NCBI GenBank assembly: GCA_015068545.1 | Contig: SVKH01000001.1 | Coordinates: forward strand, 1 to 59,080 | Origin: Oscillospiraceae bacterium | Lineage (GTDB): Bacteria > Bacillota > Clostridia > UBA1381 | DNA length: 59,080 nt | Direction of reading: 5' to 3' | In this document: piece after piece, positions 17,730 to 28,715 of the stretch | Position numbering within the stretch: position 1 is the first letter of the stretch | Layout of the letters: every line of letters starts with the position of its first letter | Notes under the pieces: model-generated | What the model was told of the DNA's origin: nothing | What the model saw: only the letters and a program-made list of their open reading frames with translations | Database searches by the model: none | Program-made: the position numbers and the translations under genes

Positions 17730-17804
17730 ATCATATCCTCCTTTTTTCCTTATGATATGCATATCATAGCAATTTAATACTTTTTTCAAAATAGGGACGT
17801 TTTT

Positions 17805-17838
17805 TCAAAATGGGGACGTAGTCATTTTTGTTTTCTTA
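17805..17838. repeat. 34-bp direct repeat, copy 1 (preceded by a tandem partial copy at 17781-17800)
   Basis: The sequence tcaaaatggggacgtagTcatttttgttttctta matches 20129-20162 at 33 of 34 positions. ttcaaaatAgggacgt occurs immediately upstream. Confidence 0.9.
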
Positions 17839-17843
17839 CAAAC

Positions 17844-18118
17844 TATATGCACGATATAACAGTAGAGAAGATTGCCCGATACCTAAACCTTGACAGAACA
17901 TATTTTTCTGTCATTTTCAAAAAGACAACCGGACTTTCTCCTAAACAGTATCTTCTTAATATTATAGAATGAGTATTGCCGCCACTCTCATAACCAAAAA
18001 ACATATTGCGATATCTGTTGTAGCAAACTCAGTTGGATATTCTGATTTATATACCTTCCCTAAAATGTTTAAACATCATTTTGGAGTCTCACCATCAAAC
18101 TATTCAATACGAGAATAA
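17844..18118 (+). pseudogene. AraC/XylS-family regulator remnant (C-terminal HTH only, frameshifted)
   Basis: It translates to ...ITVEKIARYLNLDRTYFSVIFKKTTGLSPKQYLLNI, hits a stop, and continues in another frame as RMSIAATLI...VANSVGYSDLYTFPKMFKHHFGVSPSNY. No N-terminal sensor domain is present. Confidence 0.75.
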
Positions 18119-18499
18119 ATGTATAAAACTTGTTTTTTTAGCTCAGATTACACAAAAACGATTATCAGTTTTTATCTTCTTTTATTACGTTTTGTAGTTC
18201 AAGTATGGTTCAAAAACTGCTTGACATCTACCCTTTTGTTTCAATATAGAATTTTACATAAAGACTTTAAACCATTGAAAAAAGCGAACAATATATATAC
18301 ATCTGTGCCGAAGGCACTTTTTCGCAGAAGGTAGGTAGTGAAACAAAGGCATTATGAGTACCTTTACAATCGAATAGACGACTGGAACGTGACCTTTTGC
18401 GAAAAAGGAGCAGCAACGGAGCATATAAAAAATGACCACTTTGCAAGTGGTCATTTAAATTGCAGCGTAGTTTGCTGCGACGTGGAAGAGACGAACAGT

Positions 18500-19294
18500 T
18501 TAGATGCCAAGAAGTTGTTTTTTCTTTGCATCAAATTCTTCTTTGCTTATAATTCCTTCGTTTAATAGTTCTGCATATTTTCTTAATTCCTCGGCATTAG
18601 AATTTGGTCTTGTTGGATTGTTCATTTTTCCCTTGTTTAACATTACACTTTCTATAAATTCCTTTATCTCCTGTACATATTCATTGTCTGCACGATAAAA
18701 TGTAACCGTATTTTCATCGTAATTAGCCTCTTTAACACCATGTTGTCCCTCAATTCCGCCTCCTAAACCAAACTGAATATAACCAACCATTAATCCGGCA
18801 CGTTTCACCTGTATACTCTTTATCTCTGATATAGGAATAGTTTTTGTACCTTTTAACCCTTGAAACGCTAGCGCGAAAATACCTTTCCTTGTTATTTCAA
18901 TTTTATTCTCATATACATAAAGTTGTCCGTTATCACCTTTTAGTGTATACAGAGCACCATTATTGCTTTGAATATCATTTTTGTATTCCTCTATGATAGA
19001 TTTATCACCAGGATTATTTTCTTTTAATATTATTTTCCCATTTAATTTATCTAGTGTTGCGTATATTTCAAAAGTAGTGGCACTTTCTGTTATATTAACA
19101 TTTACTGTCTTCTCACATTTAGCAAACACGCCAACAGGAATAAAACATATTTTATGACTTCCTATACTTATATTTGATTCTATCGTTTCACCATTCGCTA
19201 ATTCTCCTATAACAACATCATCTATTTCTACCTTATATTTTTTTGACCAATAATAAAAAGAAGATTCTCTTTTTATAATAATTCTACTATCCAT
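18500..19294 (-). CDS. PH-like (DUF4429-type) domain protein with C-terminal SHOCT domain
   Basis: The C-terminus AEELRKYAELLNEGIISKEEFDAKKKQLLGI is a SHOCT motif, and the middle has a GYIQFGLGG bacterial-PH-like segment. A TTGACA-17-TAAAAT promoter, an SD (gaggaggg) and a terminator at 18431-18456 are present. Confidence 0.7.
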   Translation of the reverse strand: MDSRIIIKRESSFYYWSKKYKVEIDDVVIGELANGETIESNISIGSHKICFIPVGVFAKCEKTVNVNITESATTFEIYATLDKLNGKIILKENNPGDKSIIEEYKNDIQSNNGALYTLKGDNGQLYVYENKIEITRKGIFALAFQGLKGTKTIPISEIKSIQVKRAGLMVGYIQFGLGGGIEGQHGVKEANYDENTVTFYRADNEYVQEIKEFIESVMLNKGKMNNPTRPNSNAEELRKYAELLNEGIISKEEFDAKKKQLLGI

Positions 19295-19417
19295 TATGAT
19301 CCCTCCTCAATATAATTTTAACACATCTATATTATAATGTCAAAAAGAAAAACCGAATGGTTAGATATGTCATCTAAATCTTTCGGTTTCTATGGCATTG
19401 CACCGATAAAATGATAC

Positions 19418-19569
19418 AATTTCGCATAATATACTATTTAGCATAATTAACCTTTCATCGTAATTTACTTTTTAGCAAAATTAAACTCTTACTAAAATAA
19501 ACCTTTTAGCAAATCTGTACTTTTTAGCAAAATTCATACCTTTCGGCGAAATTCATACCTTTTAGCAGA
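19418..19569. repeat. degenerate tandem array of about 8-9 units of roughly 18-20 bp (iteron-like)
   Basis: The minus-strand units are TGCTAAAAGGTATGAATT / TCGCCGAAAGGTATGAATTT / TGCTAAAAAGTACAGATT / TGCTAAAAGGTTTATT... / TGCTAAAAAGTAAATT... / TGCTAAATAGTATATTA / TGCGAAATTGTATCATT. Confidence 0.75.
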
Positions 19570-20107
19570 ATATGCAACTATATCAAACAAAATATCCCAA
19601 TCTCCATGATGATGCAAGGTTGCTTTATACTGATACAAGTCGGGATACGGTTCGAAACTTTTAGTAGAACCAATTGTCCTTGCATATTTAATAATAGTAT
19701 TATTCTTAATCAGATCAGCAACTCTATCGTCGCAGTTCTTTCCGCCACAAGGATATGCCATACCCTTCACCCCATATCCTACAAGTTCAGAGAGGGTTAT
19801 TCTGTCCTGCTCAACCTGACGCAGAACCTCCATGTCATCTTTAATACTGGTAAGGTTTGGATGCGAAAGTGTATGAACCGCCACCTCGTGTCCATTATAA
19901 ATGTGTTTTATATCTTCGGGATTGTTCTTTTGTATGATTGACATGAACACCATTACGCACTAAAGAACCTGTTTTCCCCAAAAGTTTCGAATTGATGTTA
20001 AAGGCAGCCTTCAAATTATATTTATTAAAAATTTCAATAAGCCTTACATCCTGCGTTACTCCGTCATCATAGCTGAATGTTATGGCTTTATTCTTTCCAC
20101 CAAACAT
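19534..20107 (-). pseudogene. polysaccharide deacetylase (NodB-type) gene split by a frameshift near 19940
   Basis: ORF 19895-20107 (AITFSYDDGVTQD...) and ORF 19534-19953 (...GHEVAVHTLSHPNL...) are consecutive parts of one NodB domain in different frames. A good SD (aggagg) precedes the first ATG. Confidence 0.7.
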
Positions 20108-20128
20108 AACTTCCTCCTAAAAAATCTT

Positions 20129-20162
20129 TCAAAATGGGGACGTAGGCATTTTTGTTTTCTTA
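20129..20162. repeat. 34-bp direct repeat, copy 2
   Basis: The sequence tcaaaatggggacgtagGcatttttgttttctta matches 17805-17838 at 33 of 34 positions. Confidence 0.9.
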
Positions 20163-20262
20163 TTGTTGCACCGCATTTGAAGTGTATCTCCATGCCGCTG
20201 TCCTTCATTACGATGTAGTCTACCACCTTCTTGATTTCCCGATAATTTACGCGATACCCCAA
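20163..20262 (-). pseudogene. possible C-terminal fragment of a recombinase gene
   Basis: It translates to ...GYRVNYREIKKVVDYIVMKDSGMEIHFKCGATI, which resembles the C-terminal tail of large serine recombinases as recalled from memory. There is no N-terminus, no SD and no ATG. Confidence 0.25.
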
Positions 20263-20277
20263 ATTAGTGTTCTTAAT

Positions 20278-20305
20278 TGGTGACCCGTATGGGAATCGAA
20301 CCCAT
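20278..20305 (-). pseudogene. orphan tRNA 3' fragment (acceptor 3' strand plus T-arm plus CCA)
   Basis: The minus strand reads atgggttcgattcccatacgggtcacca, with a T-stem/loop (ATGGG-TTCGATT-CCCAT). No matching 5' acceptor, D-arm or anticodon arm lies upstream. Confidence 0.65.
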
Positions 20306-20349
20306 GTTATAATTGTGCATTACACCATTATATTTTATAAAAATATAAT

Positions 20350-20384
20350 AAAAAATAAAAGACTGCTCAAAAGAACAGTCTTTT
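20350..20384 (-). terminator. rho-independent terminator, apparently the original tRNA operon terminator
   Basis: The stem is aaaagactg / cagtctttt, followed by a T-run on the minus strand. It lies immediately downstream of the displaced tRNA-Lys 3' copy. Confidence 0.7.
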
Positions 20385-20388
20385 CTAC

Positions 20389-20434
20389 TGGTGAGCCATC
20401 GGAGATTCGAACTCCGGACAACTTGATTAAAAGT
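20389..20434 (-). repeat. distal att repeat (displaced 3' portion of tRNA-Lys)
   Basis: The sequence tggtgagccatcggagattcgaactccggacaacttgattaaaagt is identical to 27056-27101. Confidence 0.95.
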
Positions 20435-20572
20435 GACTGCCCATTCGGGCAGTATTGAAATCTATCTCAATCCGTTGATTTCACAAGGTTTATTTACATT
20501 ACACGTTAATTCTAATGCCTTTCGGCACGCTTGATATTTGATACTATTATTATACTATTCCAAGAGGAAAAG

Positions 20573-21181
20573 TCAATTATTTTCTGTCATCTGAACGAGT
20601 TTATAAAAACTTGTTCTTTTTGTTTCGGTCAATTCCATTGCCGTTTTTGCGGTGATTTTTCCGTCTTTCCAGTCTGCATACACCTTTTTCCAATTTGCAG
20701 GATAAGTAAGTGCGGGACGTCCTAACTTCTTTCCGTTTTTCTTTGCCGCCTCAATGCCCTCTGCTTGTCTTGCCTTGATTGTTTTTCTTTCCTGTTCCGC
20801 AATCGTTCCAAGCACTTCAATCAGAATGTTGTTCACCATTTCAAAAACCCATTCTTGACCTTGCGGCAAGTCCATCATTGTTGTTGGTAGGTCAATGACT
20901 TTCAATCTGATGCCGTTGTCTTTAAAGAATTGTAATTCGTTTTTGATGTCTGTTTTGTTTCTTGACAGACGGTCAAGTGATTTCACAATAAGTGTATCAC
21001 CCTTGCGGAGCATCGCATTTTTTAATGCGGTATAGCCTGTGCGGTTCAAGTCCTTGCCGCTTTCTTTGTCGGTGATGATATCCCTATCATCTGCTCCAAG
21101 AGTCTTGAAAGCCTCAATCTGTCGGTCAAGGTTTTGTTCCTTGCTTGATACTCTTGCATAATAGTAAGTACGTGTTTCCAT
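20573..21181 (-). CDS. small serine recombinase (resolvase/invertase family)
   Basis: It has YARVSSKEQNLDRQ with the catalytic Ser, SLDRLSRN, and a C-terminal HTH. It is 202 aa. Confidence 0.9.
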   Translation of the reverse strand: METRTYYYARVSSKEQNLDRQIEAFKTLGADDRDIITDKESGKDLNRTGYTALKNAMLRKGDTLIVKSLDRLSRNKTDIKNELQFFKDNGIRLKVIDLPTTMMDLPQGQEWVFEMVNNILIEVLGTIAEQERKTIKARQAEGIEAAKKNGKKLGRPALTYPANWKKVYADWKDGKITAKTAMELTETKRTSFYKLVQMTENN

Positions 21182-21228
21182 TGTTTGTAAACCTCCTGTG
21201 TGATTATGTATTCATCATACCATAAGTG

Positions 21229-21400
21229 TTCGTAAATGTCAAGCCTTTTACGAATATATTTGTAAATTATTTAAATACATTTGCGAACAAGAAAAACACG
21301 TGCTTTTTATGTGTTTATAAAGGTGTACCTTTACGAATACTTACAATTCATCATTATCCGTTACAATTTAGTATAAATAATATTGCCGAATTACAATTTA
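21229..21400. promoter_or_regulatory. cluster of short repeats upstream of the serine recombinase (candidate res/operator region)
   Basis: TTCGTAAA (21229) is inverted relative to TTTACGAA (21247). TTTGCGAA (21280) and TTTACGAA (21330) follow. Three copies of TTACAATT(T/C)A occur at 21341, 21361 and 21391. Confidence 0.4.
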
Positions 21401-21578
21401 CATTAAACCATCAACTTTTAACAACTTTTTATCAAAATAAAAACTTTTTTAAAAAATATTGCTTGTCATATTTATAGCACATCTTTACCTTATCGGTATG
21501 TTATACTAAATACATAAAGAACAGGGAACAACACAAACCCTGAAAAATAAAAAATATTATAAAAGGAGGTTCATTATT

Positions 21579-22028
21579 ATGAACACAATCAGAATTGAAA
21601 GAAACGCAAACGGAAAAGTAGAGGCAGGAATTGTTACAAAGGCATTCCTAAAAAGAGCAGATGTATTCGGCACAGACGAATATATTGCGGTACAGAGATT
21701 TTATGAGATGCATCCAAATGCAACAATCAAAACAAAGTCAATCAGGAAAAATCCCGACAAGGAAACAAACAAGAATCTTACTTACGCAAATATGGAACTA
21801 TTTATTAAGACAATTGCGTGCGACGAGAAAGAGATGAACAAACTTCTTGAAGAAATGAGCAAAATTAAAAACATTTCACAAATTCAGAAGAGACCTTATA
21901 AGTATGTTCTTGATTGGTTCAAAGCAACATTCCCTGAATACACATCTCACGATATTTTCAAGGATAATAAAGACGAGAATATCGAAAACAAAACTAACAT
22001 CGTCCCACTAAAAACAGTAAATGAGTAA
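21579..22028 (+). CDS. island hypothetical protein (paralog A)
   Basis: An SD (aaaggagg) precedes the start. It shares ...LTYANMELFIKT...RPYKYVLDWFKATFPEY with the next gene. No family was recognised. Confidence 0.7.
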   Translation: MNTIRIERNANGKVEAGIVTKAFLKRADVFGTDEYIAVQRFYEMHPNATIKTKSIRKNPDKETNKNLTYANMELFIKTIACDEKEMNKLLEEMSKIKNISQIQKRPYKYVLDWFKATFPEYTSHDIFKDNKDENIENKTNIVPLKTVNE

Positions 22029-22052
22029 TTAAAAGAAAGGAAGTATAAAATT

Positions 22053-22514
22053 ATGGAAAAGAAGAATGTAGAAATTAAAGGTTACAGAATCGATTTTGGA
22101 AACAACTCAATCGTAATGAATTACAAATTTGCGGCGGCTGCCGAAGTGTACGGCTCACCTGAATACGAACTATTAAAGTCAATCAGAGCAGATTTCCCAA
22201 GCTTTAAAGTTTTCACAAAAGCGGGCAGAGATATCAAAACACCTCGCAAGACAAAGCGTATGACCTATGCAAATATGGAAAAATACATAAATACATTTGC
22301 GAATGCAAGCGAATTGATGGAAATGTTTGAATTAGTTAAAGATAAATCAGCTATCGTAAAGAGTCCGTACAAGTATGTACTTGATTGGTTTAAGATGCAG
22401 TTCCCGAACTACAAAGAATTGCCGGAAAAGGTGGAGATAAAAGCTCCAATTGTCCCGGTTGCCGCTCCGAAAGTCCAGACATATAAATCGGAAAGCGAGG
22501 AAAAAGCATCTTGA
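22053..22514 (+). CDS. island hypothetical protein (paralog B)
   Basis: An SD (aaaggaag) precedes the start. It contains ...MTYANMEKYINT...SPYKYVLDWFKMQFPNY. It is followed by a terminator. Confidence 0.7.
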   Translation: MEKKNVEIKGYRIDFGNNSIVMNYKFAAAAEVYGSPEYELLKSIRADFPSFKVFTKAGRDIKTPRKTKRMTYANMEKYINTFANASELMEMFELVKDKSAIVKSPYKYVLDWFKMQFPNYKELPEKVEIKAPIVPVAAPKVQTYKSESEEKAS

Positions 22515-22526
22515 AATTGAAATAGA

Positions 22527-22561
22527 AGTCACACCAAGTAATTAAGGGTGTGACTTTTTTG
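22527..22561 (+). terminator. rho-independent terminator
   Basis: The stem is agtcacacc / ggtgtgact, followed by tttttt. Confidence 0.8.
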
Positions 22562-22608
22562 TATGTCTGATAAATGGCACAACAAAGCCAAACGCGAGGC
22601 GTCTTACT

Positions 22609-22637
22609 TTGATTTTTCTAAAAAAATATGTTATAAT
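22609..22637 (+). promoter_or_regulatory. sigma-A type promoter of the small-protein/HTH/GIY-YIG operon
   Basis: TTGATT is followed by a 17-nt spacer and TATAAT with an upstream TGn (tgttataat). Confidence 0.65.
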
Positions 22638-22672
22638 ATTTATAGAAAATAAGAAAAGGAGAATAAAAAAAT

Positions 22673-22903
22673 ATGTCTTATAAATCAACAACAGAAAGAA
22701 TGCTTGAAGCACAAAAATCAGATGATATTATTAGAAACTATCAACTCCAAAAGGATATTATAAAGCAATCATATTTTGAAAAACAAAAAATCGAAAAGCT
22801 AAAAAAAGAGATAACGGCAGACGTTTTATCTCAAATCGGCACAAAGCTTGAAGATGAGGCGTTGAAAAAACTAATAGACATGATAAATAAACTTGGCAAA
22901 TGA
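22673..22903 (+). CDS. small 76-aa coiled-coil-like hypothetical protein
   Basis: An SD (aaaggag) precedes the start. The composition is Lys/Glu-rich and helical. The stop overlaps the SD of the next gene. Confidence 0.6.
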   Translation: MSYKSTTERMLEAQKSDDIIRNYQLQKDIIKQSYFEKQKIEKLKKEITADVLSQIGTKLEDEALKKLIDMINKLGK

Positions 22904-22916
22904 AAGGAGAAACAAT

Positions 22917-23501
22917 ATGCCATATACATTTCCACATTAGAAAACAGTAACAATTAACCGAGAAGCGGCAAAGTCCGATTTCCTCGGTATTAAAAACGTG
23001 AATTGGCAATCTGCCGCACGAGATTTAGGAGCACATTCTTTGATGTTGTATCTATATCTTGCATCAAATGCGGATGGATTTAATCTTGCATTATCCCCCG
23101 CCGCAATAAAAAACGCAATCGGTATGCCGACAACAACATACCGAGACCAACTGAAAAAACTAATAAATAAAGGTTATCTTGTTCAAACAGGCGGCAATAG
23201 TTTTGACTTTTATGAAACACCTAATACGGATGCCGTGTCAAATACGCAAAACATTCAAACTTGCGATACGCCTACCGTATTGAATTTTGAAGAATGTACG
23301 TATGACGATACCGTTATTACCCGTGCCGTCCGTGATATATCGTCAGATATTATAGAAATAAATAATACAGAAAATTCTATAAATAATAATGGAATAAATA
23401 ATAGTGATATAAATGGAACGGCAGGCATCTATATTCCAAAAGTAAAGGAAATAAGAATTCCTGTCCCAAAAGTAGAAAGAAAAAAGGAGTTTATATTCTA
23501 A
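22917..23501 (+). CDS. winged-helix/HTH protein (phage replication-organiser-like N-terminus) interrupted by an in-frame TAG at 22938-22940
   Basis: SD GAAAGGAG lies 7 nt before ATG 22917. Codon 8 is TAG, and the same frame then stays open to TAA at 23499-23501. The track ORF starts at GTG 22998, which has no SD. This may be a pseudogene or may need amber suppression. Confidence 0.5.
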
Positions 23502-23920
23502 TGGCTAACAAGAAAAATACTTACGAAGAAAATATGTATAACAAACTAAAACAAAAAGGACTTGCCGACAAGTACGAACACGCAGGAATTTATTGTATAA
23601 AGATTGATGATGATATTGTCTATATTGGCAAAAGTCATAATATGTTAAGGCGTGTGTCATAGCATTGTGTGGGAATAAACACTCAATCAGAATTGAAATA
23701 TAGGATATTATCAGAGGCACACCGCAAGGGACACAGGATAGGCTATGACGTTTTATATTACGCCTCACGCGGCTCGTATTACGATGTAAGAGACGAAATC
23801 GGCAACAAAGAGGGTGAGTATATCAGGCAATACAATCCCGTTTTAAATACACAAATTCCACACTTGGATAATTGGCGAAGATTCGATGTCCGCCATATTC
23901 CTGTGCGAGAATTTTTATAG
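23501..23920 (+). CDS. GIY-YIG nuclease domain protein interrupted by an in-frame TAG at 23660-23662
   Basis: ATG 23501 overlaps the previous TAA (TAATG). The protein reads GIYCIKIDDDIVYIGKSHNMLRRVS-TAG-HCVGIN...EGEYIRQYNPVLN. It terminates at TAG 23918, with TAA at 23927 as the next stop. Confidence 0.5.
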
Positions 23921-23927
23921 ACATTAT

Positions 23928-23955
23928 AAAAGGGCGGTTTTCCGCCCTTTATTTT
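23928..23955 (+). terminator. rho-independent terminator
   Basis: The stem is aaagggcgg / ccgcccttt, followed by a T-rich tail. Confidence 0.8.
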
Positions 23956-24176
23956 AATTTTCAACGATGACGGCAAATCAAAATGCCATTTCAAAATTGT
24001 TGTGCCCACGCATACTGAGAATTGACATTTGGATTTTTAAAAATCCCGAAATACACCCCCGTTCGTAAACCGTCTATAAATATGTTTCTCTTTTGGAAAT
24101 TTAAATAAATTTAAAGTCAGACATTTAACCCAATATTATAAAATGGTTTCTGTTAATTGTCTGACTTTGTTTTTGC

Positions 24177-24773
24177 TTATTCTATAATGTACTTTTGTCC
24201 CATTAAGTAAAGACAAAATTCCAAAGATTTCGGTTCGTTTTTTACTTTTTCTGGAACAGAGATAAATCCACGCACCTGATAAGTTGTATCATCAAGAGGT
24301 TTGTATGTACTATCATAAAATACTGTGTTTTTTATTCCGTTTTTCACCTTAAAAAATTCAGCATCAATATCAGAAGAAAGATAGTACCATTTTGAATCGA
24401 CATTGCGTACAGAACAATAATTCTCATTAAAGTGGTATTCTTTGTCATATATTAAAATTGGTTTTGCATAATCGTGAAAACGGTCTTTAAGTTCTTTTGT
24501 GCCTATATATTTGTATTCGCAAGTGTAATGAAATAAAGCCTCTCCATTACTTGGTTTCAAAGTTTGTTTTGTTTTGTCACTTATTGTTGGCATAAAGAAG
24601 TTTTCATCATTTTCATCCATATTGATTTCATCAACAAATTCTGCACTAATAAGTTTTACTTCAAAATCGTTATTTGAATTGACTGTAATATCTCCAATTT
24701 TTGGAGAATTACTACAACCAACTAACGATAAAAAAGTTAATAAAGAAACAATTAACGATATTATCTTTTTCAT
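24177..24773 (-). CDS. island lipoprotein of unknown function
   Basis: It has a signal peptide with a lipobox (LSLVGC). It is 198 aa. It is divergent from the WYL regulator gene. Confidence 0.75.
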   Translation of the reverse strand: MKKIISLIVSLLTFLSLVGCSNSPKIGDITVNSNNDFEVKLISAEFVDEINMDENDENFFMPTISDKTKQTLKPSNGEALFHYTCEYKYIGTKELKDRFHDYAKPILIYDKEYHFNENYCSVRNVDSKWYYLSSDIDAEFFKVKNGIKNTVFYDSTYKPLDDTTYQVRGFISVPEKVKNEPKSLEFCLYLMGQKYIIE

Positions 24774-24918
24774 CCTTAAAATCCCCTTGTATTCAAAAAT
24801 ATGTAGCGACTACATTATATCACATTTTGTAAATAAGTCAATATAATTTATTAATGCCTTGTGTAAAAGCAAATTTAATGTTATTATATAAATATACCAA
24901 AGAAAGAGGCTTGATCTA

Positions 24919-25941
24919 ATGGCAAAATCAGAAAATCAAAAACTAAAAATACTATACATTGCGAAATACTTTCTTGAATATTCAGACGAAAACCATCCAC
25001 TAACCGCAGAAAAAGATATTTGCGATTATTTGAAAGAGGAATATGGAATAGACGCAGAACGTCGCTCCGTATATAGAGATATAGCACTATTGCGAGACGT
25101 GTTCGGTATGGATATAGACGGCGGGCAAGGCGGCAGATACAGGCTTATGTCAAGACAATTTGACTTTGACGAATTACGTCTATTGGCTGAATGTGTTTAT
25201 TCCGCAAAGTTCATTTCAGAAAGTCAAGCAAGGAATTTCATCAGCACGTTGGGTGAATTTTGTAGCGTGTACCAAGCCGAAAAGTTAGAGTCAGAAGTAT
25301 TTTTGTGTGACAGAGTAAAGACAAAGCAAAAAGGCACAATGACAATCATTAGCGAAATAAACGCCGCAATGTCCAAAAAACAAGACGGCAAGTCACATAC
25401 ACCACAAAAGATAACATTTAAGTATTTAAAGTCCACAATAGACGATGTGCATTCACAAAAGGAACGCAAAAACGGAAATCTCTATAAAGTAAGTCCATAT
25501 AAATTACTTATAAACGACGGCAATTACTATCTTTTGGCATTTGATAGCGATAAGCAGGATTTACGCACATACCGAATTGACCGTATGAAAGAGGTAAATC
25601 GTATAGACGAACCACGAGACGGAGAAAAAGAGTTTGCGGAAGTTGATTTACGTAGCTACACCCGAAGAGTGTTTTCTATGTATGGCGGCAAAAAAGAACG
25701 TGTGACAATCAGATTTATAAATCCACTCCTTGATACCGCAATCGAACGCTTTGGAACAAGTCCCGATGTGTTTTATATGCCAAAAGACAAAAATCACTTT
25801 ATTGTATCGGCAGATGTTGAAATAAGCGATCAATTTTTCGGTTGGCTTTGTGGTTTCGGCAACAAGGCAAAGATCGAAAGCCCTGACCACGTTGTTGAAC
25901 AAATGAAAGAACATTTAAACAAGATACAAAACTTATACTAA
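24919..25941 (+). CDS. HTH plus WYL domain transcriptional regulator
   Basis: It has an N-terminal winged-HTH, a central WYL-type segment (YKLLINDGNYYLLAFDSDKQDLRTYRIDRM) and a C-terminal WCX-like extension. It is 340 aa. Confidence 0.8.
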   Translation: MAKSENQKLKILYIAKYFLEYSDENHPLTAEKDICDYLKEEYGIDAERRSVYRDIALLRDVFGMDIDGGQGGRYRLMSRQFDFDELRLLAECVYSAKFISESQARNFISTLGEFCSVYQAEKLESEVFLCDRVKTKQKGTMTIISEINAAMSKKQDGKSHTPQKITFKYLKSTIDDVHSQKERKNGNLYKVSPYKLLINDGNYYLLAFDSDKQDLRTYRIDRMKEVNRIDEPRDGEKEFAEVDLRSYTRRVFSMYGGKKERVTIRFINPLLDTAIERFGTSPDVFYMPKDKNHFIVSADVEISDQFFGWLCGFGNKAKIESPDHVVEQMKEHLNKIQNLY

Positions 25942-26018
25942 AATGTTAAAAAGAAGTCAAAAGTTGATGCTTTTGACTTCTTTTTTTATAAAAGTTGATA
26001 CCTTGTAATGATTTAATA

Positions 26019-26951
26019 TCATTTATGAATTTTTATCCTTGTACTATTGGATTTCATTTGAGCAAGCGGGGAAAATTTGTCATAATTCTTTGCAATATCC
26101 GCATCAAATATAGCACAATAATGCTTTGTCATATCAAGTGTTGAATGTCCCAAAAGGCGTTGCAATGTAAAAGCATTGCCACCGCAATCGACAAGATATT
26201 TTCGGGCAAAGGTATGACGAAAGGCGTGTATGCTTGTCCTTTGTATTCCTCGTCTGTTGTTATAACGTGCTATGCTGCTCCGCAAACCGTGTTCTTTTAA
26301 CTGTTCGCCGTTTTCTGTTGGAAATAAGAAATCATCATCCGAGCCGCCACGAATACGCATATATTCTTTTAGTATGCCGCATAATTCGGTGCATAATGGA
26401 ATTACTTGCGATTTCTTGCTTTTGGTATGCCTTAAATAGATTACAAGGTTTTCCAAGTCAACGTCCTTGTTTTTGATGTTGCGTACTGTTGCGGCACGTG
26501 TGCCGTTGTTCACAAGTAGGTTGATAATCACCCAAGTGCGATATTCTGAAAAAGCACATTTCCGCGTATTTGGTTTTTTCAAAAGTCGCTCCAACTCTTT
26601 ATCTGAATAGGTTTCCTTAATTGTTTCCTCGCATTTGTAATTGTGCATTTTTAGTGACGTTATTTCTTCGTCATTGCACCAAGAGAGAAAAGTTTTCACA
26701 GTTCTGACATAACTACTGATTGTATTCGGTGCAAGTTCTGATGCACGCATACTTGAAACCATACATTCCAAATCTGACTTTGTTAAATCGTCTATTGGAA
26801 TATCAACATCCAAGTGCCGACGTACCGCTTTGAAATGCTGATTGTAGGTTATAAGTGTTTTGTCACTCAATCCCTTTGCCTTTCGTGAGAGAATAAAATC
26901 CTCAAAAGTTTCTGCAAATGTGTTGCCAATTTTCATTGTAATTTTCTTCAT
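26019..26951 (-). CDS. tyrosine site-specific integrase
   Basis: It has a C-terminal catalytic region with HAFRHTFA...LLGHSTLDMTKHY (R..H-x-x-R..Y signature). It lies about 100 bp from tRNA-Lys. Confidence 0.9.
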   Translation of the reverse strand: MKKITMKIGNTFAETFEDFILSRKAKGLSDKTLITYNQHFKAVRRHLDVDIPIDDLTKSDLECMVSSMRASELAPNTISSYVRTVKTFLSWCNDEEITSLKMHNYKCEETIKETYSDKELERLLKKPNTRKCAFSEYRTWVIINLLVNNGTRAATVRNIKNKDVDLENLVIYLRHTKSKKSQVIPLCTELCGILKEYMRIRGGSDDDFLFPTENGEQLKEHGLRSSIARYNNRRGIQRTSIHAFRHTFARKYLVDCGGNAFTLQRLLGHSTLDMTKHYCAIFDADIAKNYDKFSPLAQMKSNSTRIKIHK

Positions 26952-27055
26952 TTTCTGCCACCTTGATTTCCTTATTTTATTTCAAAAATCAAGCGTGCTG
27001 ATAAAATCTTTCAAACAAAGAAAAAACCGCTGAAATCCTTGGATTTCAACGGTTA

Positions 27056-27131
27056 TGGTGAGCCATCGGAGATTCGAACTCCGGACAACTTGATTAAAAG
27101 TCAAGTGCTCTGCCAACTGAGCTAATGGCCC
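27056..27131 (-). tRNA. tRNA-Lys (anticodon UUU), the island integration target
   Basis: The minus strand reads gggccattagctcagttggcagagcacttgaCTTTTAAtcaagttgtccggagttcgaatctccgatggctcacca and folds as a cloverleaf with an encoded CCA. Confidence 0.9.
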
Positions 27132-27207
27132 TGGCAGGGATAGCAGGATTCGAACCTACGAAATGCCAGAATCAAAATCTGGTGCCTTACCGCTTGGCGA
27201 TATCCCT
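27132..27207 (-). tRNA. tRNA-Gln (anticodon UUG)
   Basis: The minus strand reads agggatatcgccaagcggtaaggcaccagaTTTTGATtctggcatttcgtaggttcgaatcctgctatccctgcca. Confidence 0.9.
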
Positions 27208-27215
27208 AAATAAAA

Positions 27216-27293
27216 TGGGGTGGATAGTGGGATTCGAACCCACGACATTCAGTGCCACAAACTGACGCTCTAACCAGCTGAACTATATCCACC
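27216..27293 (-). tRNA. tRNA-His (anticodon GUG) with extra 5' G(-1)
   Basis: The minus strand reads ggtggatatagttcagctggttagagcgtcagtTTGTGGCactgaatgtcgtgggttcgaatcccactatccacccca. Confidence 0.9.
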
Positions 27294-27305
27294 ATGTAAA
27301 AAAAA

Positions 27306-27382
27306 TGGCGCGTCTGAAGGGATTCGAACCCCTGGCCCACTGCTTAGAAGGCAGTTGCTCTATCCGACTGAGCTACAGACGC
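27306..27382 (-). tRNA. tRNA-Arg (anticodon UCU)
   Basis: The minus strand reads gcgtctgtagctcagtcggatagagcaactgcCTTCTAAgcagtgggccaggggttcgaatcccttcagacgcgcca. Confidence 0.9.
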
Positions 27383-27388
27383 ATAAAA

Positions 27389-27463
27389 TGGAGCGGGTGA
27401 TGGGAATCGAACCCACACAGCCAGCTTGGAAGGCTGGAATTCTAGCCATTGAACTACACCCGC
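27389..27463 (-). tRNA. tRNA-Gly (anticodon UCC)
   Basis: The minus strand reads gcgggtgtagttcaatggctagaattccagcCTTCCAAgctggctgtgtgggttcgattcccatcacccgctcca. Confidence 0.9.
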
Positions 27464-27578
27464 ATATTCAATTAAGTTGATACATTCATCAACTGACCTT
27501 GTCTATTATAGCAGATGATACCATTTTTGTCAACACTTTTTTCTAAAAAAATATAATATTTTTTTGCACAATTATATA

Positions 27579-28715
27579 TCACATATTATTATTGTTTTTT
27601 GACATTTTATACACAGCCAAAGCAAGCTTTTCCATATCCCTTTTAGTTGAGAAGTATCCGAAGCCTGCGCGGATTGCGCCTCCTGATTCTGTACCTAGGG
27701 TTATGTGAGCAGGATATGCGCAGTGATAGCCTCCTCTTGTGGCAATGCTGTATTCGCGGTTTAAAATATCGGAGGCTGTCTGGGAGTCTATATCCTTAAT
27801 ATTAAATGCAACAGTTCCGTTTCGGTTGCCGTGAGTTAATCCATAGACCTTAACTCCTCTGATGTTGTTTAGGGAGGAGATAAGCTGCTGAGCAAGGTGC
27901 TTTTCGTGGTTTAATATATTTTCGCAGCCTACGTTTCGAACATATTTAACCGCTGTTGCCAAGGTCATGATTGCGGGAGTATTCAGCGTACCGGAATGCA
28001 GAATATCGGGAAACTGTGTAGGTTGCAGGAAGCTTTTTGACTCTGTGCCTGTTCCGCCTACTATAAGAGGGGATAGCTCTATGCCTTCCTTTACATAAAG
28101 TCCACCTGTGCCCAATGGACCCATAAGTCCTTTATGACCGGAAAATGCGAGGAGTGACACATTCATGTCCTCTACATCAATGGGCAATATTCCGGCAGAT
28201 TGGGCAGAATCAAGCAGAAATGGAATGCTATGCTTTTTACAGATTTTACCTATTTCTTTAATAGGCAAAACGCTGCCACATACATTGGATACATGTGTTG
28301 CTATTATAAGTTTTGTGTTGCTTTGTATGGCTTTTTCTATATCCTTTGGCAGAATTTCGCCTTTTTCGTTAGCATACACCATGGTATAATCGCAGATTTT
28401 ATGAACTGGACGTATCACGCTGTTGTGTTCCATGGAAGTGATTATTGCGTGGTCATCCGGTTTCAAAATTCCTGCTATTGCCATATTAAGTGCATGAGTT
28501 GCGTTGCAAGTAAATGCAATTCTTTCAGGAGCAGAGATGTTAAACAGCATTGCAAGCTCTTCCTGTGCGTTTATTATACCCTTTGCTCCGGAAATGCTTG
28601 CACTATGACCACCTCTGCCGGTATTAACGCTGAAATTTACGGTGTTTTTGTACATGGCATCGTATACGACTTTTGGCTTTTTGATGCTTGTGGCAGGGTT
28701 ATCAAGATATATCAT
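27579..28715 (-). CDS. class V aminotransferase-fold PLP enzyme (cysteine desulfurase / selenocysteine lyase-like)
   Basis: The start was placed at MIYLDNPATS. The PLP-Lys region SGHKGLMGP is present. It overlaps the upstream DUF3343 gene by 14 nt. Confidence 0.8.
   Translation of the reverse strand: MIYLDNPATSIKKPKVVYDAMYKNTVNFSVNTGRGGHSASISGAKGIINAQEELAMLFNISAPERIAFTCNATHALNMAIAGILKPDDHAIITSMEHNSVIRPVHKICDYTMVYANEKGEILPKDIEKAIQSNTKLIIATHVSNVCGSVLPIKEIGKICKKHSIPFLLDSAQSAGILPIDVEDMNVSLLAFSGHKGLMGPLGTGGLYVKEGIELSPLIVGGTGTESKSFLQPTQFPDILHSGTLNTPAIMTLATAVKYVRNVGCENILNHEKHLAQQLISSLNNIRGVKVYGLTHGNRNGTVAFNIKDIDSQTASDILNREYSIATRGGYHCAYPAHITLGTESGGAIRAGFGYFSTKRDMEKLALAVYKMSKNNNNM

Follow-up and report, generated by a model that had tools for sequence, protein, structure and literature searches.

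A recoded operon in a small integrative element

The contig SVKH01000001.1 of an Oscillospiraceae bacterium (assembly GCA_015068545.1), 59,080 nucleotides long and hereafter called the window, carries at the 3′ end of a tRNA-Lys gene an integrative element of 6.67 kb with an operon of three genes, which code for a small protein, a Rep-like winged-helix protein (Rep) and a GIY-YIG nuclease. The rep and nuclease genes are interrupted by in-frame TAG codons and by nothing else. From the comparison with related elements, these TAGs are very probably programmed glutamine codons that follow the pattern of genetic code 15, in a host that itself ends genes at TAG. The reading that we favour for the whole, which we hold to be probable but with appreciable doubt, adds to this that the programmed codons act as a translational gate, opened when UAG decoding is supplied in trans, the supplier being probably a recoded phage.

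The operon lies behind a promoter-like site and opens with a 76-amino-acid (aa) open reading frame (ORF) whose TGA overlaps a Shine-Dalgarno sequence (GAAAGGAG). The rep frame begins at ATG 22917, meets a TAG at codon 8 and then stays open for 186 codons down to the TAA at 23499-23501; this stop overlaps the ATG of the nuclease gene (23501) in a TAATG junction. Codon 54 of the nuclease is also TAG (23660-23662), inside GIYCIKIDDDIVYIGKSHNMLRRVS-TAG-HCV (in longer context, ...VYIGKSHNMLRRVS-TAG-HCV...), and the frame goes on through EGEYIRQYNPVLN. These features had been pointed out in an initial annotation made before the present analysis, and all of them were found as described, the promoter as a match to the consensus. 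The same annotation let the nuclease gene end at the TAG of 23918-23920. That codon is instead a third in-frame sense TAG, followed by ACA TTA and by the true stop, TAA 23927-23929; the nuclease homologues extend two residues past it, with the consensus ...ILNTL compared to REFL-TAG-TL here (alignment A1). Altogether, the interruptions of the operon are three in-frame TAGs; neither of the other stop codons and no frameshift is among them. The third TAG and the borders of the element, defined by its attachment (att) sites, are the points that the initial annotation lacked. In the program-made ORF list, the rep start was put at GTG 22998 and the nuclease gene was split in two. Were the TAGs read as Gln, the peptides across the TAG sites would be VSQHCVGINTQSELK, MPYTFPHQK and the C-terminal EFLQTL.

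Concerning the encoded proteins, Rep gave profile matches to the replication initiation proteins of phrog_270 (E 2.6e-7) and to a DnaD-like loader (E 2.2e-4). The nuclease is, like T4 endonuclease II (DenA, PDB 2WSH), a stand-alone GIY-YIG protein of about 140 aa; the relationship is distant and the likeness comes from the sequence profile, the profile of the nuclease family matching 2WSH with E 1.9e-8 over the GIY...YIG...R segment. The endonuclease II genes of T4-like phages were matched by the nuclease at 27-29% identity (tblastn), and its Pfam GIY-YIG score was borderline (20.6 bits, under the 22.6 cut-off). The residues of the GIY-YIG fold (G29-I-Y, Y41-I-G, R51, E104/E106 and N116) are invariant or nearly so in alignment A1. 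The TAG of codon 54 had been placed by the initial annotation within the catalytic core. It does stand between YIG and the conserved His, but the residue at this site is variable in the family (Q, E, Y, S, A, W or F) and is aligned with Asn in T4 endonuclease II, so that, judging from the alignment, it is not a catalytic residue.

TAG takes the place of glutamine codons

A protein search with the nuclease yielded 849 homologues, mostly of about 138 aa and for the most part on short contigs. Codons at the position of codon 54 were counted in 67 motif matches, i.e. 66 related loci and the window. The aligned codon was TAG in 39 of them, CAG in 15, CAA in 2, GAG or GAA in 5, and TAC, TCC, TGG or TTC in 6. 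In terms of the nuclease alignment, column 55 holds TAG in 34 genes and Gln in 17, and genes that share the TAG at this column are down to 45% identical in amino-acid sequence. In column 9 of Rep, within the N-terminal motif MPxYTFPN-x-R, the 49 distinct genes compared have either TAG (19) or Gln (30) and no other residue, and the same alternation of TAG with a near-invariant Gln is found in Rep columns 79 and 105. Recurrence at this level, at codon 54 of the nuclease and in column 9 of Rep, exceeds coincidence. A further site is the Q of the nuclease motif LNTQIP (column 124), with TAG in 4 genes, Gln in 59 and His in 2. One of the related elements, L002, has TAG at rep codon 9 and another TAG in its small ORF.

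The evolutionary turnover at these sites was estimated on neighbour-joining trees, where the minimum number of changes (gain of TAG or reversion) was 10 for nuclease column 55, 4 for column 124 and 3 for rep column 9. The same TAGs recur in independent assemblies from many samples and also in isolate genomes. In two homologues, P0001 (94% identical) and P0041 (67%), the stored protein has Gln where the DNA of the contig has TAG, a mismatch under the standard code. As TAG alternates with CAG and CAA at positions that are otherwise invariant for Gln, it seems reasonable to interpret with considerable confidence that it is read as Gln in these genes. The initial annotation had offered programmed amber decoding as one of two explanations, with Gln as the residue, and had looked to orthologous islands for conservation of the TAGs; they do recur there at the same positions, and the comparative evidence, from aligned codons as well as from selection, argues for that explanation.

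Purifying selection around the TAGs

The proportions of nonsynonymous (pN) and synonymous (pS) differences downstream of the TAGs were low and high, respectively, when the window was compared to its relatives L001 (pN 0.010, pS 0.327) and L012 (pN 0.098, pS 0.50). The median pN and pS downstream of the TAGs were 0.30 and 0.73 for the nuclease, and 0.25 and 0.55 for rep. The first 29 codons of rep, from ATG 22917 to just before GTG 22998 and thus spanning the TAG, gave pooled values of pN 0.205 and pS 0.663. Since pN is much lower than pS in this stretch, the true start of rep lies upstream of the TAG. The internal GTG 22998, considered as a possible true start, was ruled out, as the 29 codons before it are conserved and under purifying selection.

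Distribution of the TAGs in the element family

With one genome scanned per species, 62 loci of this element family were detected, all in Clostridia and mostly in Oscillospirales, with hosts among Acutalibacteraceae, Oscillospiraceae, Faecousia, Pseudoflavonifractor and Oscillibacter, cultured isolates included. In 24 loci the element, 4.4-8.9 kb long, lies between direct repeats (19-129 bp) next to a tRNA gene, whose identity differs (Lys, Pro, Val, Arg, Thr and others). The core gene order is recombinase; p73 or p149/p153; small ORF, rep and nuclease; optional cargo and WYL regulator; and integrase. The element of L012 is 91-93% identical in DNA to that of the window, and the host flanks of the two diverge beyond the tRNA cluster, which indicates that the element moves between hosts. 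The cargo slot of these two copies, located between the nuclease and WYL genes, differs: 24060-24876 of the window holds a gene for a 198-aa lipoprotein-like protein, versus about 2.9 kb of other DNA in L012 (10559-13418).

The occurrence of TAG in each gene of the family is summarized in Table 1. The TAGs are confined to the genes of the rep operon among those counted, and the early TAG present in the small ORF of many relatives (e.g. at codon 13 of the 86-aa form) is absent from the window copy. Four resolvase genes terminate at TAG with a normal C-terminus, so TAG can be a true stop inside an element. Considering the two main genes together, TAG in rep was found only in elements that also have TAG in the nuclease (27 versus 0; Fisher p = 3e-4, phylogeny not corrected for).

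Table 1. In-frame TAG codons in the genes of the element family.
Gene	Genes counted	Genes with TAG	TAG codons	CAA+CAG codons
GIY-YIG nuclease	72	61	111	297
Rep	54	32	37	474
86-aa small ORF	15	9	9	55
Integrase	37		0 inside aligned region	
Resolvase	35		0 inside aligned region	
WYL regulator	16		0 inside aligned region	
p149/p153	61	0		

A separate observation was made in L002 and L003, which represent a 5-6-kb form of the element: their cargo gene for a 422-aa SLH-domain protein (L002 949-2250, minus strand) contains a single in-frame TAG, so that in some members recoding reaches beyond the rep operon.

The isolates with family members include Pseudoflavonifractor phocaeensis An901 (L026 and L071, two different copies), Oscillibacter valericigenes An860 (L028) and Pseudoflavonifractor sp. 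HCP28S3_F10 (L027). The contexts of the TAGs in isolates are AAIR-TAG-AVGMP in rep and AEA-TAG-RKGH in the nuclease.

Host code and search for a UAG decoder

TAG is the stop of seven of the 45 host ORFs of the window, and, as judged from ORF ends only, the extensions downstream of it are ordinary and show no unusual back-up stops. These seven ORFs include the three that the initial annotation had cited for the use of TAG as a true stop by the host. None of the nine element genes ends in TAG.

A tRNA with the anticodon CUA, denoted tRNA(CUA), which the initial annotation had considered as a possible suppressor, was not found by ARAGORN in the window, where only five host tRNAs were reported, nor in 68 related loci (53 + 15, with the host flanks included for the 53). 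A permissive Rfam scan of positions 17800-27600 gave the same five host tRNAs and no tRNA-like RNA inside the element. As a positive control, ARAGORN reported CUA tRNAs in the unrelated phage contigs L146 and L150, so that the absence of a decoder from the element is meaningful. The element itself is without a detectable suppressor, and a tRNA that changes the code is common but not obligatory in recoded phages.

Another possibility explored was a phage suppressor derived from the host tRNA-Gln by a change of the anticodon arm to CUA. When this was searched for in viral contigs, nearly all the matches were tRNA-Leu(UAG) genes on the opposite strand, because the search pattern is nearly palindromic, and the candidate was rejected; the real tRNA(CUA) genes of L146 and L150 are unrelated to the host tRNA-Gln. 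A search for recoded prophages, by way of long TAG-containing ORFs outside the elements, was too noisy, with spurious antisense ORFs in the hosts of higher guanine-cytosine (GC) content.

Homologous genes in recoded phages

A nucleotide search with the operon against GenBank phages gave no match. Homologues of the nuclease, 41-42% identical, were found in two IMG/VR contigs, L009 and L010, of 22.5 and 27.2 kb, in which almost every gene contains TAGs, the integrase excepted; in L009 the TAG-bearing genes include those for tape measure, tail, terminase, portal and minor head proteins. Compared to the element, the two contigs are 31-41% identical in the integrase, 24-39% in the winged-helix domain of Rep and 42-46% in the nuclease; for the integrase of the window, the values are 33-41%. 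The relatives of the L009 terminase belong to a clade of contigs the largest of which are mostly of 19-24 kb. In about a dozen members of this clade the coverage by long ORFs is 0.23-0.39 when the standard code is applied and grows to 0.65-0.85 when TAG is taken as a sense codon, and other members use the standard code. The density of TAG in the structural genes of the related phages is 7-16 per 1000 codons. The strongly recoded small phage contigs (L074-L079, L083, L084, L086 and L112-L114) had no tRNA(CUA) in the parts scanned.

By its sequence features, the clade of L009 matches the Topaz clade of Borges et al., a study that reportedly appeared later in Nature Microbiology (2022). The Topaz phages have genomes of 22 ± 3 kb, are recoded at TAG, integrate beside tRNA genes in Oscillospiraceae and have integrases free of TAG; suppressor tRNAs are present in only about 40% of TAG-recoded phage genomes (bioRxiv 10.1101/2021.08.26.457843). 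The same authors regard recoding as a possible switch between lysis and lysogeny, and suggest that it may let a phage sense co-infecting phages of the same code. The reading of TAG as Gln has been proven by proteomics in crAss-like phages (PMC9523058). Two metagenomes, 3300024268 and 3300032167, contain a p153 identical to that of the window as well as contigs of Topaz-like phages, which is weak evidence of their co-occurrence.

A proposed translational gate and its alternatives

In a cell with the standard code, the translation of rep would halt after seven residues, and that of the nuclease after 53, short of the Glu and Asn that are conserved in its fold. Still made would be the integrase, the recombinase and the WYL regulator, whose genes, like those of p149/p153, serve the integrated state and are written in the standard code. 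Such a gate would keep off the replication of the element and its endonuclease II-like nuclease, potentially damaging to DNA. With the arrival of efficient UAG decoding, the operon would be translated, and the element could replicate and deploy its nuclease. The likeliest source of decoding would be a TAG-recoded temperate phage of the same hosts and of the Topaz size class, which has integrase, rep and nuclease genes homologous to those of the element. The element would then behave as a satellite-like hitcher, with its induction gated at translation. We infer the gate from the combination of TAG standing for Gln, its restriction to the operon, a host that stops at TAG, the lack of a decoder and the kinship with recoded phages.

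Among the alternatives, a leaky stop without any helper deserves the most attention, although we consider it unlikely. It assumes that a near-cognate tRNA-Gln reads the TAG rarely and that the attenuation leaves a constant trickle of Rep and nuclease. The rep gene of the window has only one TAG, only one of the two nuclease TAGs is upstream of catalytic residues, and small amounts of an initiator and a nuclease could plausibly be enough. Moreover, Gln is the residue also expected from reading by near-cognate tRNA-Gln, which is established in E. coli, and the failure to find a suppressor tRNA in the elements, or in the scanned parts of related small recoded phages, agrees with this explanation. 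It is difficult to reconcile, however, with at least eight members having three TAGs in a nuclease gene of about 138 codons, in addition to TAGs in rep and the small ORF: the frequencies of readthrough would multiply, leaving essentially no product. Besides, invariant Gln is replaced by TAG at several independent positions, as if TAG were synonymous with CAG. These nucleases with three TAGs, the neighbouring TAGs and the independent replacements argue for efficient decoding rather than a background leak, and the TAG density of the related phages, in structural genes made in bulk, suggests that efficient decoding exists in this host group.

A code switch controlled by the host was also considered, and it appears still more doubtful. 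The Oscillospirales host would itself provide conditional UAG decoding, by a chromosomal tRNA(CUA) or by a stress-dependent loss of release factor 1 (RF1). The confinement of the family to one bacterial order would fit this possibility, as would the lack of tRNA(CUA) both in the elements and in the scanned parts of Topaz-like phages, and the minority of recoded phage genomes with a suppressor tRNA of their own (about 40%, Borges et al.). On the other hand, host genes end in TAG at the normal rate, 7/45, and with no unusual back-up stops, and tRNA(CUA) is missing from the 59-kb window and from the host flanks of the related loci. To our knowledge, bacteria have not been found to do so.

Plain pseudogenes or assembly errors in a decaying island, the nonsense lesions of the initial annotation, might be thought of on account of a low-GC island where two neighbouring genes hold three stops, and of gene callers that fragment these genes under the standard code, but they have a negligible probability and, together with sequencing errors and internal restart, are excluded on comparative grounds by the TAGs that independent assemblies and isolates share, by their alternation with Gln, by the strong purifying selection downstream, by all three interruptions being TAG and by the residues after the last TAG (TL and stop), which match the C-terminus of the family. 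Equally far-fetched is a reading of TAG as pyrrolysine or another residue different from Gln, since TAG is exchanged for Gln codons in columns that are otherwise invariant for Gln; some Firmicutes decode TAG as pyrrolysine, and ARAGORN labels any CUA tRNA as 'Pyl', but there is no CUA tRNA near the element and a non-exhaustive search of the annotated ORFs of the window found no pyl genes.

Turning back to the gate opened in trans, several observations weigh against it. Neither a helper nor a source of UAG decoding was identified. The 33 Topaz-like phage loci, scanned over parts of their genomes, gave no tRNA(CUA), and decoding may come from the host or from an unknown factor. Among the genes of the window element, none could be recognised as serving TerS, packaging, capsid redirection or interference with a helper, so that the element is at most a candidate satellite; a TAG-bearing TerS was seen only in the distant relative pRGI00117. 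The helper idea is weakened by this lack of a packaging gene and by that of a suppressor in those phages. Neither circular copies (0/25 short contigs with terminal overlap) nor virion-associated copies of the family were found. About a fifth of the members (9/50 distinct elements) have no TAG in rep and nuclease, which makes the gate dispensable. Finally, the label of replication initiator for Rep hangs on weak profile matches (E 2.6e-7 and 2.2e-4).

The initial annotation had speculated about a helper-sensing switch. The restriction of TAG to one operon, the elements devoid of a suppressor and the homologues in recoded phages speak for it, but the helper and the suppressor that it calls for were not identified. 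The proposal that satellites sense their helper through the genetic code, with a code change rather than a protein anti-repressor as the signal of induction and with the operon translated only after an infecting or induced TAG-recoded phage has made the cell read UAG as Gln, is tentative and, in our opinion, rather doubtful. As a variant, it may be that neither partner has a suppressor tRNA and that both make use of an undiscovered UAG-decoding switch of Oscillospirales.

Comparison with known systems

The element shares several properties with Topaz phages: the order of the hosts and their standard code, TAG at Gln positions, a TAG-free integrase, integration beside a tRNA gene, and homologous integrase, Rep domain and GIY-YIG nuclease. 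Also, recoded and unrecoded members are mixed in the Topaz clade as in the element family. It differs from them in its size (6.7 kb compared to about 22 kb), in having TAG in one three-gene operon and not in most genes, in its gene order, with the integrase convergent with and downstream of the operon, and in being without terminase, portal, capsid, tail and lysis genes. The nine element genes gave no match to structural PHROG or Pfam families. Because of this, and of the mere 6.67 kb between the att repeats, the element is a relative of the Topaz-type phages and not a member of them; it cannot be a phage.

The layout is that of a satellite, with an integrase and att site, a replication module (weakly annotated, E 2.6e-7) and no structural genes. 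In this, the element is similar to PICI and PICMI (PMC10803314), which are small, have a tRNA-adjacent att site with a tyrosine integrase, spread within one host clade and carry a regulator and a replication module without structural genes. The known satellites, however, sense their helpers by protein anti-repressors or helper-triggered induction and are not known to do so by the genetic code.

The only plasmid match was pRGI00117 (HG796263.1, L119), a circular contig of 7,167 bp from a rat caecum metamobilome (PMC3913684). Like the element, it is a small non-phage replicon with a GIY-YIG gene (38% identical) in which the codon just before the His is likewise TAG. It differs in being a free circle, distantly related, with a TAG-free plasmid-type Rep (phrog_4402, E 1.2e-44) and no integrase. 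Several of its genes have in-frame TAGs. With TAG as a sense codon, it encodes a winged-helix protein, with one TAG, and the small subunit of a terminase (phrog_2538, E 6.7e-29), whose gene has two; ARAGORN found no tRNA in it. The deposited annotation is a string of tiny coding sequences, and the original paper makes no mention of the genetic code (PMC3913684). As would be expected of a packaging hitcher, this 7-kb replicon has a small terminase subunit but no capsid genes, and it looks like a recoded hitcher of plasmid type that has gone unrecognised. The present family is thus not the only case of small non-phage replicons recoded at TAG.

That TAG is read as Gln in phages and prophages of gut bacteria with the standard code is established. 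What differs here is the carrier, a small element without structural genes, together with the restriction of recoding to one operon and the absence of an encoded decoder. A full-text search of the literature, in which not all journals were covered, turned up no account of recoded satellites, integrative islands or plasmids. Until now, the recoding of stop codons has been regarded as belonging to phages, and it is found here in widespread small integrative elements without virion genes and in a plasmid-like circle. If the proposed reading is correct, the alternative code would be a language shared in a phage-centred community of mobile elements, and it may be a new way of sensing helpers. The operon would also offer a simple system of three genes for the study of UAG decoding in cells that also stop at UAG, a matter that concerns as well the roughly 60% of recoded phages in which no suppressor tRNA has been found. 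The cultured carriers An901 and An860 make experiments possible. From the point of view of annotation, the standard code fragments these genes, as seen in the pRGI00117 record and in the ORF list of the window, which implies a systematic mis-annotation in gut genomes.

Borders, gene content and surroundings of the element

The borders are defined by a perfect direct repeat of 46 bp (20389-20434 = 27056-27101), which corresponds to the 3′ part of tRNA-Lys(UUU), and the distance from repeat to repeat is 6,667 bp. This tRNA gene, the target of integration, is the first of a cluster of five (ARAGORN; Rfam tRNA 70.8 bits). The features of the element are listed in Table 2.

Table 2. Features of the window element.
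Feature	Position	Strand	Remarks
Left attachment repeat	20389..20434	-	Displaced copy, last 46 nt of tRNA-Lys(UUU)
Small serine recombinase (resolvase/invertase type)	20573..21181	-	Pfam Resolvase E 5.7e-30; phrog_125 E 1e-47; without in-frame TAG
p149, without family matches, paralogue of p153	21579..22028	+	Without TAG
p153, paralogue of p149	22053..22514	+	Without TAG
Promoter-like site	22609..22637	+	TTGATT-17-TATAAT with TG extension, 10/12 positions; consensus match only
76-aa ORF, first in operon	22673..22903	+	Translation; without TAG in window copy
Rep-like winged-helix protein, 194 aa	22917..23501	+	TAG codon 8 (22938-22940) read as Gln (very probable)
GIY-YIG nuclease, 142 aa, T4 endonuclease II-like	23501..23929	+	Sense TAGs (very probably Gln) 23660-23662, 23918-23920; stop TAA 23927-23929
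Intrinsic terminator	23929..23960	+	Hairpin 23929-23950, 9-pair stem (6 G-C), then T run; directly 3′ of TAA
Lipoprotein-like cargo gene, 198 aa	24177..24773	-	Signal peptide and Cys lipobox in translation; copy-specific
WYL/WCX-domain regulator	24919..25941	+	Pfam WYL E 1.3e-12, WCX E 4.3e-7; without TAG
Tyrosine integrase	26019..26951	-	Pfam Phage_integrase E 5.6e-29; without TAG
Intact tRNA-Lys(UUU), integration target	27056..27131	-	27056-27101 = right attachment repeat

The paralogues p149 and p153 are connected by the internal DNA repeats D3 and D5. They gave no match in Pfam, PHROG or NCBIfam; none of the 91 homologues of p153 is named by its source, and the AlphaFold model of p153 (predicted local distance difference test, pLDDT, of 78) had no Foldseek match in PDB or BFVD. 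These tandem paralogues, which are kept in the larger members, may have a function peculiar to this family of elements. The lipoprotein-like cargo protein had no family match in Pfam, PHROG or NCBIfam either. In L159 (Joint Genome Institute, JGI, metagenome 3300024268), a p153 identical to that of the window is followed by genes for 46, 154 and 235 aa and then by a GtrA-like gene, which suggests a variant element or a rearrangement.

The recombinase gene and about 150 bp upstream of it (20572-21337) are 84-91% identical in DNA across most related elements, and 76% in two of them; the rep and nuclease genes of those same elements are only about 75% identical to those of the window. The recombinase cassette seems to be exchanged between elements.

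To the left of the element, a block of low GC (17800-20388; 32-37%, compared to about 40% in the host) contains, on the minus strand, genes for a SHOCT/DUF4429 protein (18500-19294) and for a truncated polysaccharide deacetylase (19534-19953). It is closed by a 3′ tRNA fragment (20281-20306), whose core matches the T-arm of the tRNA-Gly at 27400-27415. The block is probably what is left of an earlier island that used this tRNA cluster.

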